From Escherichia phage teqhal, in sequence record MN895435.1: a stretch of DNA of 64,000 nt; one strand, given 5' to 3'. Below are positions 15,754-50,617 of this stretch, one piece after another. Each line of letters opens with the position of its first letter. Positions within the stretch are counted from its first letter, which is position 1. Below the pieces are notes generated by a model, which saw only the letters and a program-made list of their open reading frames with translations, was not told where the DNA came from and did not search any database. The position numbers and the translations under genes were made by a program.

Positions 15754-16410
15754 TTATTTAGCCCTTCCTAATATTCTGGCCGCCTGAGCGCATATTGATT
15801 CAAGGCGGTCATTACTTATATGATCATTTCTATACCAGTACATGGTTATCGTTCCAGCATAGATATTATCCAAATTAAAATATGGACAACTGTACATGTA
15901 GTTTATTTCGGGAGTAGGCTTTTTAGTTGGTAAAAAAGCAAATTTTGAGTCAGAATAATAATGACGTCCATTTAAATGAACTATATATTCATCCATAGTT
16001 TTATCAACAGGATATCCTCCAAGTGATTTTTCAGTTATTGTTGAAGGTAATCTTCCTTCGTATGCTATAATATCAACAAAATAGTTTAAGTTTTTAGGGC
16101 GGAAAGAATACACCGCACTAAAGTCTGCCTCAGATGATATATGAACTATCTGGAGTTGTTCCAGGGCGACAGATTCAAAGCGTGCATTTCTTTCCTTTTC
16201 AATAATTTCACTGTATGTTTCATACTTTGATTGCTTATAGTACTCAAAGAAACTATCTCCCCTATACCAAACAATCGCCATCATAAATAAAAGAATTACG
16301 ACAGCTACCCGGGAAGCAAGAACCTTCCCAGTAGCGTTATCTTTGAACAAGCGATCTAGAACACCAAATAGAATATCAGAGGGCGAAAATGATATTCTAG
16401 GTGCTGCCAT
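15754..16410 (-). CDS. t: holin T (lysis and lysis-inhibition)
   Basis: 218 aa, the T4 T length; N-terminal transmembrane segment and large periplasmic domain; directly downstream of gene 38. Confidence 0.85.
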   Translation of the reverse strand: MAAPRISFSPSDILFGVLDRLFKDNATGKVLASRVAVVILLFMMAIVWYRGDSFFEYYKQSKYETYSEIIEKERNARFESVALEQLQIVHISSEADFSAVYSFRPKNLNYFVDIIAYEGRLPSTITEKSLGGYPVDKTMDEYIVHLNGRHYYSDSKFAFLPTKKPTPEINYMYSCPYFNLDNIYAGTITMYWYRNDHISNDRLESICAQAARILGRAK

Positions 16411-17258: not shown

Positions 17259-20200
17259 TTACATAAGTTTAGATTCAAGTTCTTTTACACGAGAAGAAAG
17301 CGTTTTCACAGCTTCAACCAGAAGAGCAATCTGGGCTTGAGAAGAAACAGTGAGTATTTTATTACCCTTGCTGTCTTCTGTTTCACGGACGGCTTCTGGT
17401 AAAACGTCTTGTAACGTTTGAGCTACAATACCCGCTTCAGTTTCAATTGCCTCTCCACCGATGTATTCAGCTTTATCATAAATGACACCATTGAGTTTTT
17501 CAACTTTATCAAGTGCATTTTCGATAGGTTTGAAATTAGATTTTAAGCGAATATCAGAACGAATATAAACGTTTGGAGCATTTATATTTTTATATGAGTA
17601 CAAATCACCGTTTTGGAAACGGAATACTTGTACGCTGTTCGCATATATGTCTAATAATCCATCGCCATTTTGCTTAATACCAGTATCGCTATCACCAAAT
17701 GCTATACTATTTCCACCAAGTGCGTTATTGATATTAATACCAAATGAATTCATTTGGTTAACACCAGCTACAGTAGCATTATTTACTACAAAGCGGTTAG
17801 CTCCACCTGGAGCTTTTTCAAAGTAAGCAATATAGTTAGTTTCATCGGCAATTTCAATACGGTTACCACGAGAAGCATCGCCAGCATGAAATATTCTCAT
17901 ATTTCTTGGGTTAGCACCAGACTTATCAAAGTTAATAGAACCATTATCTTTGACATTTATGCTATTATAGAATAAAGCAGCACTGCGAACAGCTATGCCG
18001 TTATTCATTAATACTTCACCGGTTGTTAAGTTAATTGCGAAAGGACGCTTACTATTCCAATCACCGTTAACAGTTGCTTCGCCATCGGTGGCATTTTTAT
18101 CTGTAAACAGAATATAAAAACTACTGCCATCATTTCGTAGCATTGTAGCAACAGAACCAGTTTTATCGCTGTTGCTTCTAATACGAATACCAGTTTGGTT
18201 ATTAATAGCTATTTCAGAATCGGCTTCATAACGCTTAACTTTGCCGCGATCAACCAAGTTATTAAGAACATTAGCAACTTGCCCATCAACTGCTGTATCT
18301 GGAAGAGCATCCACAGGTGATTGGGTAGATGAGTTAATACCAATAACGCTAACAGTAGCATTTTCGGTACATGACCATTCACAAGTTAATTGATTGCAAT
18401 ATGTTCCGGCATAAACATAAATGTCATATGTATCTCCAGAGACGTTATTAACTGCAATATTTTTAAATGCAGCTGCAATTGTTCTTGTGTATAATACAGC
18501 ATTTAAGTCAGCAGGTCTTTCATTACTAGTACGTAAAACAATTTCAGCAATATTGCATTGTGTGAATAATCCACTATTAAATCCAGAACCACCGGCTATT
18601 TTAAAGAAGACCGTAGAAGTGGATTGTGGCATTGTTACTGTTGCAAACTTATACCATCCAGCAGTTGCTCCATAAGTAATAAATCCAGAATTAACTTTAC
18701 GATTTAGCGTGGTGTTTAAGTTAGCAAAGTTTCCTGAACCGCTAGTAATATTACCATCAGTTCCTAGTTGGGCATTTCCGACTTTAAGAGGTTTACTGAT
18801 TGACACGAAATTATCGCTTATAACAAGACCGTGTCCATAAGATTGACTATAAAGCGATAAATCACTTCCAGCGCCACCAAGACCAACATACCACGATCTA
18901 GTTCCAGCTTTAGAACCCTGCAAATAATTAGCAGAAGAAGATGAAGGAGAATCTAGAGTAAGCGCTGCATTACGTTCATTAATAGTTACTGGACATATCA
19001 TTTTAATAGTTTTAAGACTATTACTTACTTGTAATAATCCTGTACCAGATCCAGAATCTCCTAAATGAACATCATGCGACATTTTAACTGTGCCGGTGTT
19101 CAGTTCTATTATCAATGGTCTAAGATTACTTATACCGCCAGATTCTCCAGCATCTTTAGGAGTCGGGATAATATAAAGATTTCTTTCTGAGCGACGGAAA
19201 ATAGCACCATATTCGGCATTCCAAATTCTTAATGCATCAGCAGTTCCGCCGATTTTAACTTGTCCAGTAATAGAAGAACCACCTTGGACAAACAAACCAT
19301 TAGACATGGTAACATTACCGACTAAAGTGCTTAATCCATTAACTTTAAAACTTCCGTCAGTAATAATACTTCCTCTAGCATTAACAGCTCCAGCAAACTG
19401 GGTTACAACAGGACCAGTAGTTTCTGAGCCGCTTGGGGCTACACGCTGGGAATAAAAATAATAACCTTGTCCGTCAGCTACTTCAAAAACTGTTTCACGA
19501 TTACGATCGCCAGATGCGTTAAATGAATTACCCCACGCTTTAACAGTTACATAGCTTTTATTCTGACCAGCACGAGTACCGCCTTCCCACAAAATTTGCT
19601 TAGTGCCATCAATTGTAGTAGTTGGAGCGAATGTTAGCCCAGCAGTAGAATTATTAGCTGCTAAATATATGCCGTTATATATTGAAAGCTGCTTAACAGA
19701 TGTAATACCGCCATCAGCATAAAACATTACATTATTAGAGCCAGTTACCAATTTCAAAATACCTGGGTTAACTTCCATGCCTTCTTGAGTATTAATATTA
19801 GTTTTTCCTTTACCACGGAAATAGTGGTTCATTTTACCGCCAGAGTTATATCCAATGTGGGTTTGACCATCTCCAGCAGAGTTTTCATCAGCCTGTGTTT
19901 GAACCGATAAAAAAGCAGCGTTCGTTCCAGGCATAATCCATGTTCCGCCTTGGTCTTCTGAACGTCCAAATAATGCTTTACGAGTACTACGGAAACTGTC
20001 AGGAGTAATAGACGCGATAGAAAGACCATTAGCAACTAAATCATATACACCAGATCTTTTATATGATACACCAGTTGCGGCATCTCCAATGACTATATAG
20101 CATTCACCCATTGCTCCAGTGGAGCCGTAATTATTAATGTTTTCATCTGTTGTAATTGTACCAATTGCGAGTGAGCGTCGCAACACTAAAGACCCATCAT

Positions 20201-21041
20201 TGCGAAGGCCCATTTGTTTATTAACGGCTGTATTACCGGTCCACCAAGACAGTTCATCACTTTTTCCGGTTTGTGCAGAAGCTAATTCATGATAAATCGT
20301 ACCACCAGATTTTGCACGGAATTTACGAAGGTAATTAATTCCGTTTGTTTCACCAGTTCCAGGATAAACATATTGAACTAATGACTGCGAATCGTATTGT
20401 CCAAACGCTTTCGTATCAAATGAAATATTTTTAGTTACAACAGATGGACCAATCAAAGAACCTGTTCTTGTTTCAATATTACTCTGAGCGACTAAATACC
20501 CACCAGATACTAATAAATTACCAGAATCAACTTGAAAATTACCTGAGCGCGCAAATGTCCAATATTTAGATTGACCAGTTTCATCAATATAATGAATCTT
20601 CAACGAACCTTCAGAAACTAAAGTACCTAATGAAAAAGTTCCATCTTTAAAGCGCTGTTTAATTATAGGATTATATTCAGATGTGGAAGTAGCTGAGCTT
20701 AAATCTACAAAAATTGGAGCCTTTGCAGTGTGTTGACCGGACCAAGCCCCACTTCCAGTAGTACGATAATTAAACTCAATATATCCACCACTTGCTATAA
20801 TCTGCGGGCCAATTAAATTAAATTTTCCAGTCTGTGTATAATCACCAGTTTGAGTGATATTACCACTGATATTACCGCCAGCGGTAATGCTTAAGTCAAT
20901 GATATTTCCTGAATCGTCTTTAGTAAAAATTGTTCTATCTTTTAAGTTTATAGCCAATTCACCTTCGGCTAATACTGAAGCAGCAGGACGTTGACCTGCA
21001 GTTTTGCTTCTTTTAAATTGTATTTGTTTTAAAGTAGCCAT
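17259..21041 (-). CDS. 37: long tail fibre distal subunit gp37 with C-terminal chaperone-like domain
   Basis: 1260 aa; C-terminal about 120 aa (SDIRLKSNFKPIENALDKVEKLNGVIYD...) resembles the self-cleaving intramolecular chaperone domain; synteny 34-35-36-37-38-t. Confidence 0.9.
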   Translation of the reverse strand: MATLKQIQFKRSKTAGQRPAASVLAEGELAINLKDRTIFTKDDSGNIIDLSITAGGNISGNITQTGDYTQTGKFNLIGPQIIASGGYIEFNYRTTGSGAWSGQHTAKAPIFVDLSSATSTSEYNPIIKQRFKDGTFSLGTLVSEGSLKIHYIDETGQSKYWTFARSGNFQVDSGNLLVSGGYLVAQSNIETRTGSLIGPSVVTKNISFDTKAFGQYDSQSLVQYVYPGTGETNGINYLRKFRAKSGGTIYHELASAQTGKSDELSWWTGNTAVNKQMGLRNDGSLVLRRSLAIGTITTDENINNYGSTGAMGECYIVIGDAATGVSYKRSGVYDLVANGLSIASITPDSFRSTRKALFGRSEDQGGTWIMPGTNAAFLSVQTQADENSAGDGQTHIGYNSGGKMNHYFRGKGKTNINTQEGMEVNPGILKLVTGSNNVMFYADGGITSVKQLSIYNGIYLAANNSTAGLTFAPTTTIDGTKQILWEGGTRAGQNKSYVTVKAWGNSFNASGDRNRETVFEVADGQGYYFYSQRVAPSGSETTGPVVTQFAGAVNARGSIITDGSFKVNGLSTLVGNVTMSNGLFVQGGSSITGQVKIGGTADALRIWNAEYGAIFRRSERNLYIIPTPKDAGESGGISNLRPLIIELNTGTVKMSHDVHLGDSGSGTGLLQVSNSLKTIKMICPVTINERNAALTLDSPSSSSANYLQGSKAGTRSWYVGLGGAGSDLSLYSQSYGHGLVISDNFVSISKPLKVGNAQLGTDGNITSGSGNFANLNTTLNRKVNSGFITYGATAGWYKFATVTMPQSTSTVFFKIAGGSGFNSGLFTQCNIAEIVLRTSNERPADLNAVLYTRTIAAAFKNIAVNNVSGDTYDIYVYAGTYCNQLTCEWSCTENATVSVIGINSSTQSPVDALPDTAVDGQVANVLNNLVDRGKVKRYEADSEIAINNQTGIRIRSNSDKTGSVATMLRNDGSSFYILFTDKNATDGEATVNGDWNSKRPFAINLTTGEVLMNNGIAVRSAALFYNSINVKDNGSINFDKSGANPRNMRIFHAGDASRGNRIEIADETNYIAYFEKAPGGANRFVVNNATVAGVNQMNSFGININNALGGNSIAFGDSDTGIKQNGDGLLDIYANSVQVFRFQNGDLYSYKNINAPNVYIRSDIRLKSNFKPIENALDKVEKLNGVIYDKAEYIGGEAIETEAGIVAQTLQDVLPEAVRETEDSKGNKILTVSSQAQIALLVEAVKTLSSRVKELESKLM

Positions 21042-45998: not shown

Positions 45999-46002
45999 GT
46001 TG

Positions 46003-46027
46003 AGGACTCCTTCGGGAGTCCTTTTTT
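46003..46027 (+). terminator. rho-independent terminator
   Basis: aggactcc-ttcg-ggagtcct hairpin followed by TTTTT. Confidence 0.7.
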
Positions 46028-46108: not shown

Positions 46109-46441
46109 ATGAAAACGATTAATCTGAACGCTACAGTTAAAACTAAATGCTTCAACGGTAAATATGATGAAACTATGTGGTTCTTAATGGCAGTTGAAGG
46201 TGATATTATTGAAGTAGAAACAACAGAAGGTATGGGAACAGATTTCACCTTTACAATTCAAGTTCATAATTTCTTTACTGGTTGGATTTATGAATTGAAT
46301 ACAGTAATCGTTGGAAAAATTGAACAAAATGAATTAGGCGAATGGCATTATGTTACAGCTCGCCAACGTGCCGAACGCTTAATTGAGAAGATGAAAAAAG
46401 TTGGTAAACTTGACATGCAGCATTGGAAAGTAGTAAAATAA
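46109..46441 (+). CDS. hypothetical protein, 110 aa
   Basis: ORF with conserved leader. Confidence 0.5.
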   Translation: MKTINLNATVKTKCFNGKYDETMWFLMAVEGDIIEVETTEGMGTDFTFTIQVHNFFTGWIYELNTVIVGKIEQNELGEWHYVTARQRAERLIEKMKKVGKLDMQHWKVVK

Positions 46442-46916: not shown

Positions 46917-47204
46917 ATGTTTATGACTACTTATTTTGATACCCGTAAAAACTTCTGCGAAGTAGTTTTCTCAAAGTCGCCTAAAGACCTTCCTGCACAT
47001 TTGCAACCTACTAGCGAATCGATTAAAAACTACGTTGATGTGGTTTGTCCTTTAGAGTTTCGTACTGTAAATGGGCATGATACTTTAGCTATCACTAAAC
47101 TCAATCGCGAAATTGACATTGACCCTTCAATTGCGCGTGAAATTAACATTTCTGATATTGGCGGCGGTAATGTTAAATCGCACGGTTTTCAGATGAGGTT
47201 CTAA
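46917..47204 (+). CDS. hypothetical protein, 95 aa
   Basis: ORF with GAGGAAAATG RBS. Confidence 0.45.
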   Translation: MFMTTYFDTRKNFCEVVFSKSPKDLPAHLQPTSESIKNYVDVVCPLEFRTVNGHDTLAITKLNREIDIDPSIAREINISDIGGGNVKSHGFQMRF

Positions 47205-47401
47205 TGAAATTCTTTTTAGGTCAAACTGTTGAATTAAAGGGAGTTGGTATACCTGGATTAATTTCTAAGGTTCTACCTCCATTTAAATGGAGTGGTATTC
47301 AAATAAAAGAGGCTTATATTGTTTCCTGGGTAGATGGAAATGAAGACCTTCGTATGGGTGATGAATTATCTCCTATTTACGGATTAAAGGAACTAGTATG
47401 A
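47204..47401 (+). CDS. hypothetical protein, 65 aa
   Basis: TAATG overlap. Confidence 0.45.
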   Translation: MKFFLGQTVELKGVGIPGLISKVLPPFKWSGIQIKEAYIVSWVDGNEDLRMGDELSPIYGLKELV

Positions 47402-47604
47402 ATATAATTAATAAGATTTTTGGAATTCAGTACATTAAGGTCACATATAAAGTAACAGATAAAAATCCATATACTGATGAACATGAAGAACCACAAGTTG
47501 AGTCTATTATATTAGAAAAGGACCCTAACTGGCCAGTTGAATTTCGTCTTCCTTGCTATGGTCATTGGGCTGATGTTGAAATTATAAGTATTGAAAATGT
47601 CTGA
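47398..47604 (+). CDS. hypothetical protein, 68 aa
   Basis: ATGA overlap. Confidence 0.45.
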   Translation: MNIINKIFGIQYIKVTYKVTDKNPYTDEHEEPQVESIILEKDPNWPVEFRLPCYGHWADVEIISIENV

Positions 47605-48055
47605 GTTAGAGATTAGAAGCAATTTTAGGTGGCCATCATGTGCATTAAGTAATTTCGCCCATTGGCCTTTCGTTATGGATGGTATTCAATTTGGAGGTCT
47701 CGAAGGATTCCTTCAAGGGTGTAAGGTGAAAAATGTTGAACAACAACGTCGTATATTTGGGTTATCCGGTCTTGCCGCCCAACAAGCTGGAAGGTCTTAT
47801 GCAAGAGCTCAGGACCGTGGGACCCTCTTCTGGCTTGGAGTTCCGTTTTCAAGATACTCCCCAGCGTGGAAAGAATTATACACAAATGCATATTTTGAAG
47901 CAGCGATCCAAAACAGGGGCTTTCGTGATGCATTACAAGCCTCGAAAGGAAAAGTTTTGAAGCACAGCATGGCTAGTGGTCTAACAAAAGATGATACAAT
48001 ACTAACCGAAGCTGAATTTATTGATGTGTTAAACCTATTAAGAGACTCTCTATGA
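47591..48055 (+). CDS. NADAR/YbiA-like (DUF1768) protein, candidate ADP-ribose-processing or N-glycosidase enzyme
   Basis: 154 aa; motif LSNFAHWPFVMDGIQF then EGFLQGCKV resembles the E. coli YbiA/NADAR core as recalled; ORF is visibly more GC-rich than its surroundings. Confidence 0.5.
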   Translation: MKMSELEIRSNFRWPSCALSNFAHWPFVMDGIQFGGLEGFLQGCKVKNVEQQRRIFGLSGLAAQQAGRSYARAQDRGTLFWLGVPFSRYSPAWKELYTNAYFEAAIQNRGFRDALQASKGKVLKHSMASGLTKDDTILTEAEFIDVLNLLRDSL

Positions 48056-48888
48056 AGCCTACTATTTTAACTGATATTGATGGAGTATGTTTAAGCTGGC
48101 AATCAGGACTTCCTTATTTTGCCCAGAAATATAATCTTCCGTTGGAACATATTTTAAAAATGATCCAAGATGAGAAATTTATTTCTCCAGGTAAACTTTT
48201 TAATTGTGATGAAGAACTTGGCGTCAAGTTAATTGAAAAATACAATCGTTCAGATTTTATTCGTTACTTGTCTCCATATAAAGATGCCCTGTGTGTAATT
48301 AACAAATTAAAAGAAGATTATAATTTTGTAGCTGTTACAGCATTGGGTGATTCTATTGACGCTCTGCTGAATCGTCAATTTAATTTGAATGCTCTTTTTC
48401 CTGGTGCCTTCTCAGAAGTATTGATGTGTGGTCATGATTCTTCAAAAGAAGAGTTGTTTAAAAAGGCAAAAGAGAAATATAACGTAATTTGTTATATTGA
48501 CGATCTCGCTCACCACTGCGATCATGCGAGTGAAATATTACGTGTTCCTGTGTATTGGATGGCTCGAGGGGAACGTGACAGTATTCCAAAAACCGCTCAG
48601 CGAGTTTATACATGGAACGATGTAGAGAATAAGCTTTTTTCACCAAAGGAAAATAAAGAAAGTTTTGATAGTGAAAAAGCTATAAAAGATGTAATTGAAA
48701 AGATGATTAAAAATGATTCTTTTCGTTGGAACACTACCTGGAGAACTCCTGGATTTAATCCTTATAATCCATATCATCCATATCAGACACATCCGTTTCA
48801 GACATGGAACTATATTAAACCTGGTGGCATAGAGTATTTGTATAATAGACCTACTAGTGGTGATAATATTTTCCAAGGAGCATTCTAA
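48052..48888 (+). CDS. HAD-superfamily-like hydrolase with Pro/Tyr/Asn-rich C-terminal tail
   Basis: 278 aa; N-terminal DIDGV (HAD motif I-like) and later DD pair; C-terminus PGFNPYNPYHPYQTHPFQTWNY. Confidence 0.45.
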   Translation: MKPTILTDIDGVCLSWQSGLPYFAQKYNLPLEHILKMIQDEKFISPGKLFNCDEELGVKLIEKYNRSDFIRYLSPYKDALCVINKLKEDYNFVAVTALGDSIDALLNRQFNLNALFPGAFSEVLMCGHDSSKEELFKKAKEKYNVICYIDDLAHHCDHASEILRVPVYWMARGERDSIPKTAQRVYTWNDVENKLFSPKENKESFDSEKAIKDVIEKMIKNDSFRWNTTWRTPGFNPYNPYHPYQTHPFQTWNYIKPGGIEYLYNRPTSGDNIFQGAF

Positions 48889-49157
48889 TGTTTGTTGTTC
48901 ACACTATTTATGAAAATGAAGGTAATACTACACGTGATTACGGTCACGTAAATCAATTTTTTAGATGCAATCCAGAATTCCGAGCTCAAAAAGACGAACG
49001 AATTTTTAAAAAATGTGTAGAGCAAGGTTTCATTTACGTCAAACACTGGATGCAAGGAAATAAAGTTAGAACCACGTACCACAGGTCTTTGACTGAGCTT
49101 AATGATGAATTGATTTATAATAGAGCTGTAAACCAAACTCTAAAGGATGAACAATGA
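48888..49157 (+). CDS. hypothetical protein, 89 aa
   Basis: TAATG overlap; immediately upstream of gene 30. Confidence 0.45.
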   Translation: MFVVHTIYENEGNTTRDYGHVNQFFRCNPEFRAQKDERIFKKCVEQGFIYVKHWMQGNKVRTTYHRSLTELNDELIYNRAVNQTLKDEQ

Positions 49158-50617
49158 TTCTTAAAATTCTGAACGAAATAGCATCTATTGGTTCAACTAA
49201 GCAGAAGCAAGCAATTCTTGAAAAGAATAAAGATAATGAATTGCTTAAACGAGTATATCGTCTGACTTATTCTCGTGGGTTGCAGTATTATATCAAGAAA
49301 TGGCCTAAATCTGGTATTGCTACCCAGAGTTTTGGAATGTTGACTCTTACCGATATGCTTGACTTCATTGAATTCACGTTAGCTACTCGGAAATTGACCG
49401 GAAATGCGGCAATTGAGGAATTAACTGGATATATTGCTGACGGTAAAAAAGATGATGTTGAAGTTTTGCGTCGGGTGATGATGCGAGACCTTGAATGCGG
49501 TGCTTCAGTATCTATTGCAAACAAAGTTTGGCCAGGTTTAATTCCTGAACAACCTCAAATGCTTGCAAGTTCTTATGATGAAAAAGGCATTAATAAGAAT
49601 ATCAAATTTCCAGCTTTTGCCCAGTTAAAAGCTGATGGAGCTCGGTGTTTTGCTGAAGTTAGAGGTGATGAATTAGATGATGTTCGTCTTTTATCACGAG
49701 CTGGTAATGAATATCTAGGATTAGACCTTCTCAAAGAAGAGTTAATCAAAATGACCGCTGAAGCCCGCCAGATTCATCCAGAAGGTGTGTTAATTGATGG
49801 CGAATTGGTATACCATGAGCAAGTTAAAAAGGAGCCAGAAGGCCTAGATTTTCTTTTTGATGCTTATCCTGAAATTAGTAAAGCTAAAGAATTCGCCGAA
49901 GTAGCTGAATCACGTACTGCATCTAATGGCATCGCCAATAAATCTTTAAAGGGAACCATTTCTGAAAAAGAAGCACAATGCATGAAGTTTCAGGTCTGGG
50001 ATTATGTCCCGTTGGTAGAAGTATACGGTCTTCCAGCATTTCGCTTGAAATATGATGTACGTTTTTCTAAATTAGAACAAATGACATCAGGCTATGATAA
50101 AGTAATTTTAATTGAAAACCAGGTAGTAAATAACCTAGATGAAGCTAAGGTAATTTATAAAAAGTATATTGACCAAGGTCTTGAAGGTATTATTCTCAAA
50201 AATATCGATGGATTATGGGAAAATGCTCGTTCGAAAAATCTCTATAAATTTAAAGAAGTAATTGATGTTGATTTAAAAATTGTAGGAATTTATCCTCACC
50301 GTAAAGACCCTACTAAAGCAGGTGGATTTATTCTTGAGTCAGAGTGTGGAAAAATTAAGGTAAATGCTGGTTCAGGCTTAAAAGATAAAGCCGGCGTAAA
50401 ATCACATGAACTTGACCGTACTCGCATTATGGAAAACCAAAATTATTATATTGGAAAAATTCTAGAGTGCGAATGCAACGGTTGGTTAAAATCTGATGGC
50501 CGCACTGATTACGTTAAATTATTTCTTCCAATTGCGATTCGTTTGCGTGAAGATAAAACTAAAGCTAATACATTCGAAGATGTATTTGGTGATTTTCATG
50601 AGGTAACTGGTTTATGA
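49154..50617 (+). CDS. 30: ATP-dependent DNA ligase
   Basis: 487 aa, the T4 ligase length; adenylation motif KADGAR. Confidence 0.9.
   Translation: MILKILNEIASIGSTKQKQAILEKNKDNELLKRVYRLTYSRGLQYYIKKWPKSGIATQSFGMLTLTDMLDFIEFTLATRKLTGNAAIEELTGYIADGKKDDVEVLRRVMMRDLECGASVSIANKVWPGLIPEQPQMLASSYDEKGINKNIKFPAFAQLKADGARCFAEVRGDELDDVRLLSRAGNEYLGLDLLKEELIKMTAEARQIHPEGVLIDGELVYHEQVKKEPEGLDFLFDAYPEISKAKEFAEVAESRTASNGIANKSLKGTISEKEAQCMKFQVWDYVPLVEVYGLPAFRLKYDVRFSKLEQMTSGYDKVILIENQVVNNLDEAKVIYKKYIDQGLEGIILKNIDGLWENARSKNLYKFKEVIDVDLKIVGIYPHRKDPTKAGGFILESECGKIKVNAGSGLKDKAGVKSHELDRTRIMENQNYYIGKILECECNGWLKSDGRTDYVKLFLPIAIRLREDKTKANTFEDVFGDFHEVTGL

Follow-up and report, generated by a model that had tools for sequence, protein, structure and literature searches.

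Gene 30.3 (adfN) of the T4-like Escherichia phage teqhal, a probable NADAR-superfamily DNA ADP-ribosylglycohydrolase directed against DarTG1

An open reading frame of Escherichia phage teqhal, analysed here within a window of 64,000 nucleotides (MN895435.1), is very probably adfN, the early-expressed gene of a NADAR-superfamily enzyme that strips ADP-ribose from phage DNA and thereby defeats the host system DarTG1. The gene, its fold, its activity and its anti-DarTG1 role are already known from work published in 2024-2025, so that the locus is not unstudied, as the first-pass annotation had supposed. The same annotation had identified both the NADAR enzyme and its action against DarT with only the raw sequence to go on, and the function that it proposed, an eraser against DarT-type toxins, is proven for the 98%-identical protein of T4 (PMC11825919).

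Sequence comparison assigns the window to a T4-like phage (Tequatrovirus). Positions 47000-49200 share 99.0% identity with Escherichia phage vB_Eco_EH2 and 97.6% with T4T, whose matching stretch comprises genes 30.4, 30.3, 30.3', 30.2, 30.1 and 30 (DNA ligase). Overlaying the T4T annotation on the window gave the order cd, 31.2, 31.1, 31, rIII, 30.9 ... 30.4, 30.3, 30.2, 30.1, 30, alt.1, alt (Table 1). We assign the flagged reading frame to T4 gene 30.3 (adfN); its product is 98% identical to T4T gp30.3 across all 152 aa, with three substitutions (Q22H, K107R and I125M), and synteny with T4 extends from 30.9 through alt. The frame of 154 aa described earlier at 47591..48055 is present on the plus strand and contains LSNFAHWPFVMDGIQF, but its start was misplaced, given that the T4 annotation begins at ATG 47597, two codons (6 nt) past TTG 47591. 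Only when counted from this ATG do the catalytic residues of the literature become E36 and K43, and the real product is therefore the 152 aa protein. Its stop codon TGA (48053-48055) overlaps the start of gene 30.2.

Table 1. Features of the window discussed in the text (positions are those of the 64,000-nucleotide stretch)
Feature	Position	Strand	Remark
Holin t	15754-16410		Adjoins gp38 adhesin
gp38 adhesin, Gly-rich, T2/T6 type, 261 aa	16443-17228	-	GC maximum of the window (0.50)
gp37	17259-21041		Adjoins gp38 adhesin
Terminator-like hairpin with T-run	46002-46023		3' of 30.9
Sigma-70-like promoter match, 11/12	46410-46439		Upstream of 30.7
Gene 30.4, 68 aa	47398..47604	+	100% identical to T4 gp30.4
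adfN (T4 gene 30.3), 152 aa, predicted NADAR-superfamily DNA ADP-ribosylglycohydrolase	47597..48055	+	
E36, catalytic Glu, codon GAA	47702..47704	+	Aligns with Glu of YbiA SEHYFQAQK
K43, catalytic Lys, codon AAG	47723..47725	+	Aligns with Lys of YbiA SEHYFQAQK
30.3', 75-aa ORF	47733..47960	+	Other frame within adfN; T4 annotation
H123, codon CAC	47963..47965	+	Last beta-strand (120-123 in model)
C-terminal helix of AdfN, aa 138-151	48008..48049	+	From model; complete here
Gene 30.2, HAD-superfamily hydrolase	48052..48888	+	Overlaps 30.3 stop (ATGA)
gp30.2 tail, aa ~200-278	48649-48885	+	Disordered, Asn/Pro/aromatic-rich
alt, virion-packaged ADP-ribosyltransferase, 698 aa	50852..52948	+	70% identity to T4 Alt, full length, syntenic
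Second alt paralog, intact, 685 aa	52952..55009	+	41% identity to T4 Alt

In Pfam, gp30.3 matched Phage_30_3 (PF08010) along the full model 1-138 (E=1.7e-69, 232.4 bits, gathering cut-off 36), and the NADAR family PF08719 gave no match even at E<=1. In sequence, the tie of gp30.3 to NADAR is thus only indirect or structural. A single-sequence search against PDB returned nothing meaningful, and NCBIfam contained no model matching any of gp30.3, gp30.2 and the two Alt proteins. The NADAR/YbiA-like fold that had been suspected was nonetheless recovered, as an AlphaFold model built from 10 family sequences (pLDDT 84.2, pTM 0.82) shows the alpha+beta NADAR fold, from which structure comparison reaches NADARs, and a family profile search of PDB returned YbiA as its best match (E 0.013), placing E36 and K43 on the E..K of that protein. 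The catalytic Glu and Lys of the E-x-[FY]-x-Q-x-x-K helix are both kept. E36 is invariant in all three family alignments, the 40-sequence set included. K43 is invariant among close relatives but stays below the 90% mark for near-invariance when 40 sequences are aligned. H123 is invariant in close relatives and invariant or nearly so across the alignments; a His in the last strand is the mark of the phage-NADAR subfamily of gp30.3, the corresponding residue being Glu in YbiA-type and Asp in DarT1-linked NADARs (PMC11125620).

Johannesman, Awasthi, Carlson and LeRoux (Nat Commun 2025, PMC11825919) renamed gp30.3 AdfN and described it as a DNA ADP-ribosylglycohydrolase, both required and sufficient for T-even phages to resist DarTG1. 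Using chimeras of RB69 with T2 and T4, resistance was mapped to the 3' portion of gene 30.3; T4 and T2 deleted for adfN no longer plated on DarTG1, and RB69 was rescued by ectopic AdfN (PMC11825919). The defective allele of RB69 itself carries a frameshift that costs it the final 15 aa and with them the C-terminal helix; a shortened allele of T4 was likewise less active, and full activity requires this helix. Purified AdfN removed ADP-ribose from DarT1-modified DNA and the E36A variant did not, K43A and E36A each impaired the protein, and AdfN did not bind DarT1 in a two-hybrid assay (PMC11825919). In vitro, T4 gp30.3 released ADP-ribose from guanine-modified DNA, not from thymine-modified DNA (PMC11125620, Toxins 2024). 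According to Methods section 4.2 of the latter paper, the construct named 'T4 phage NADAR (gp30.3)' spans residues 1-208, and T4 gp30.3 has 152 aa; the construct may represent another accession or an extended protein. In a transposon screen of T4 (HIDEN-SEQ, bioRxiv 10.1101/2025.11.20.689424), 30.3 was non-essential and fitness-neutral on K-12, while on DarTG1 insertions in 30.3 were wholly lost (log2FC -7.25, adj p 0).

DarT1, the toxin of host DarTG1, ADP-ribosylates guanine bases of the phage DNA and so blocks replication, and AdfN very probably hydrolyses the N-glycosidic bond between ADP-ribose and guanine and restores replicable DNA. This chemistry depends on E36 and K43, with H123 replacing the acidic residue of other NADARs, and its target is the modified DNA, not the toxin. 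Because the allele of the window is full-length and retains all catalytic residues as well as the C-terminal helix, it is predicted to be active and the phage to be resistant to DarTG1; the three substitutions are presumably neutral. An intact adfN as a predictor of DarTG1 resistance bears on host-range prediction and on phage therapy. The allele of the window shares with T4 adfN (PMC11825919) the neighbours 30.4 and 30.2, the residues E36, K43 and H123 and the intact C-terminal helix; the phage studied here departs from T4 further in that its second alt paralog is intact and its gp38 adhesin is of the T2/T6 type. AdfN lacks the N-terminal extension of DarG1, which serves as the NADAR antitoxin in DarT1-NADAR (DarTG1) systems such as that of Geobacter lovleyi (PDB 8bat), and has His where DarG1 has Asp in the last strand. 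As an orphan, AdfN lacks a partner toxin, and it cannot replace DarG1 in uninfected cells.

The preferred reading of AdfN as a DNA ADP-ribosylglycohydrolase has to be weighed against other substrates. It is very unlikely that adfN mainly tunes the modifications made by Alt, ModA and ModB, or that it degrades soluble immune signals derived from ADP-ribose, even though the gene lies 2.8 kb from two alt genes and Iyer et al. (2022) described T4-like NADARs as early genes beside ADP-ribosyltransferases and favoured soluble ADP-ribose derivatives as substrates. The direct assays point to hydrolysis of ADP-ribosylated guanine in DNA, with a DarTG1-specific phenotype (PMC11825919, PMC11125620), and alt, modA and modB had no DarTG1 phenotype in the transposon screen of T4 (bioRxiv 10.1101/2025.11.20.689424). 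Moreover, 30.3 is dispensable and neutral on K-12, where the Alt and Mod enzymes are active, and is essential only with DarTG1, which speaks against the earlier suggestion that it adjusts the phage's own transferases; the Alt and Mod enzymes modify arginines of proteins. To our knowledge, N-glycosidic linkages to bases are what all NADARs characterised to date act on. A housekeeping role as a YbiA-type N-glycosidase on intermediates of the riboflavin pathway has next to no probability. The catalytic Glu that the YbiA family carries in the last strand is replaced in gp30.3 by H123, in keeping with a separate phage subfamily, and E. coli YbiA (PDB 2b3w) and the Phytophthora NADAR (PDB 8bau), which have the YbiA-type Glu at the position of H123, are only 16-19% identical to AdfN. 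YbiA is linked to the detoxification of riboflavin intermediates and gave no protection from DarT1 in vivo (PMC11125620), in the published phylogeny the DarT1-linked NADARs are nearest to T4 AdfN, and the phenotype measured for adfN is the one against DarTG1.

A further question is whether AdfN acts alone. In published experiments, T4 AdfN failed to protect uninfected E. coli against DarT1 and barely rescued T5 or Bas25, and the picture of the enzyme alone is therefore incomplete; a 'potentiating factor' of T-even phages has been postulated in the literature. Such a helper could be sought in gp30.2, which together with AdfN would form a translationally linked two-enzyme module and would, for example, act on a phosphorylated intermediate or on ADP-ribose after its release. 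The overlap of the two genes would suit such a module, as would the finding that a co-oriented 30.2-type HAD gene immediately follows the NADAR gene in 22 of the 80 viral loci with gp30.3-type NADARs, including 10 loci with a NADAR identity of only ~40-47%, and that one family member carries a fused NT5C nucleotidase domain of the HAD type. However, no 30.2-type HAD gene was present within 6 kb in 57/80 loci, among them T4-like genomes carrying 30.2 elsewhere, and the gp30.2 HMM matched none of the NADAR fusion proteins. Decisive are the published transposon data, according to which gp30.2 is not needed against DarTG1: 30.2 insertions were neutral (71 sites, log2FC -0.12, p 0.61) under the same selection in which those in 30.3 were lost (bioRxiv 10.1101/2025.11.20.689424). 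On these data we rejected gp30.2 as a partner of AdfN, a pairing to which we give hardly any credence, and gp30.2 stands outside the counter-defence by AdfN.

With 30.2 set aside, gene 30.4 offers a cheap candidate for the potentiator. In the supplement of the transposon study it is the only significant gene of the DarTG1 screen besides adfN (log2FC -1.79, adj p 0.014; bioRxiv 10.1101/2025.11.20.689424), and '30.4' occurs nowhere in the main text of the preprint (bioRxiv 10.1101/2025.11.20.689424). The gene is confined to the close T-even clade, in which T4 AdfN works. Its stop overlaps the start of adfN by 8 nt (ATGTCTGA), an arrangement kept in 13/13 close T-even loci, while 30.4 is absent from the more distant NADAR loci. 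Since 30.4 ends within the start of adfN and no recognisable Shine-Dalgarno sequence was found at the junction upstream of adfN, translation of adfN is likely coupled to that of 30.4. For the same reasons, insertions in 30.4 would lower the translation of AdfN, and the signal in the screen is more likely a polar effect through lost coupling. That 30.4 is itself a T-even-specific factor required for full AdfN activity appears doubtful, with some probability left to it.

The first-pass annotation had also described the next gene as a HAD-motif protein with an odd tail, and both features were found. All four HAD motifs are present in gp30.2, namely I (DxD), II (T/S), III (K) and IV (DD); over 26 sequences, no substitution occurs at D8, D10, K132, D150 or D151, and T96 is nearly invariant. 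The model is confident for aa 1-195, where it shows a Rossmannoid core with squiggle/flap and a cap, and disordered for aa 200-278. None of the HAD models of Pfam and NCBIfam matched gp30.2 at E<=1 or 0.1; a weak PHROG PNK match and a profile match to PDB 2jao (E 0.058) were obtained. Despite the silence of the curated HAD models, gp30.2 is a HAD hydrolase, and we regard it as an independent, widely conserved, putative HAD phosphatase or nucleotidase-like enzyme. Its identity to the 5'(3')-deoxyribonucleotidase-like phosphatases of the superfamily (PDB 3bwv, 2jao, 6g2n) is at most 21%, and it differs from them by the additional disordered C-terminal tail. The tail is enriched in Asn, Pro, Tyr, Thr and Trp and highly variable among relatives of gp30.2, many of which lack it (forms of 196-220 aa). 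The motif G-(G/T)-I-E-Y-x2-N-x-P-T recurs in several otherwise unrelated tails of the gp30.2 type, which suggests a short linear interaction motif.

The presence of two ADP-ribosyltransferase genes some 3 kb downstream of adfN, as proposed from the letters, was likewise confirmed, the first of them, alt, beginning 2.8 kb downstream. By similarity over ~700 aa, both genes are placed in the T4 Alt ADP-ribosyltransferase family. The product of the second is 96% identical to T4 alt.-1 and alt.-2 along their lengths, corresponding to the N-terminus of the reading frame; of this second paralog, T4 retains only alt.-1 and alt.-2 as frameshifted remnants.

The GC-richness of adfN, taken in the first-pass annotation as a sign of horizontal acquisition, is real but mild. 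The gene has a GC content of 42.3% in comparison to 35.6% for the window, which places it in the top 1.2% of windows of the same length and second among 91 ORFs (z 2.2). Its GC3 is 0.33 in comparison to a mean of 0.25 (rank 5, z 1.75), and GC2 is raised as well as GC3, which points partly to amino-acid composition. The excess of approximately +0.07 is confined to Tequatrovirus: in relatives with 85% protein identity the gene has a GC content of 0.41-0.42 on a background of 0.40, and the mean excess of the NADAR gene over 80 loci is +0.015. GC-richness speaks clearly neither for nor against a recent horizontal transfer, and the GC patch alone is weak evidence for transfer. The excess would fit a transfer between lineages of T-even phages or an earlier acquisition from bacteria; the latter was proposed for adfN by the published authors from phylogeny.

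The 75-aa frame 30.3', annotated in T4 within adfN, was rejected as a real overlapping gene. Its frame stays free of stops in close relatives, but several other frames, on both strands, contain open stretches about as long, with no signal specific to this one; 30.3' is probably a by-product of the raised GC content.

An exhaustive phmmer search with gp30.3 as the query gave 715 cluster representatives at E<=1e-3 (clusters at 50% identity). Of 40 longer representatives that were scanned, all 40 matched PF08010 and seven also matched PF08719 (best 4.9e-6), and these double matches tie the two Pfam families at the sequence level. The gp30.3-type family includes tandem double and triple NADARs, and matches to Tpt1/KptA, YpsA-SLOG, histidine phosphatase, NT5C, HD, ASCH, GDSL lipase and DUF6939 were found alongside; in part, these co-matches may stem from fusion of gene calls. 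Many T4-like genomes of 160-175 kb encode a NADAR of ~40% identity elsewhere on the map, about 60-80 kb into the contig. No 30.2-type HAD gene lies near these NADARs; at least some of the genomes, for instance those of Cronus and EcS1, carry a homologue of 30.2 at another place. Among T4-like phages, the NADAR gene has been relocated or acquired more than once.

The genes from 30.6 to 30 are tightly packed with overlapping start and stop codons, an arrangement that would fit a single early transcription unit. Scanning the window for promoters and terminators, including the two elements in Table 1, returned 22 elements in comparison to 20.9 expected, which as a whole is not above chance, and a tRNA search across the window found none. 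Outside the adfN region, the GC maximum of the window falls on a Gly-rich gp38 adhesin that adjoins gp37 and the holin gene t. This adhesin is of the T2/T6 type, and the receptor-binding module of the phage therefore differs from that of T4.
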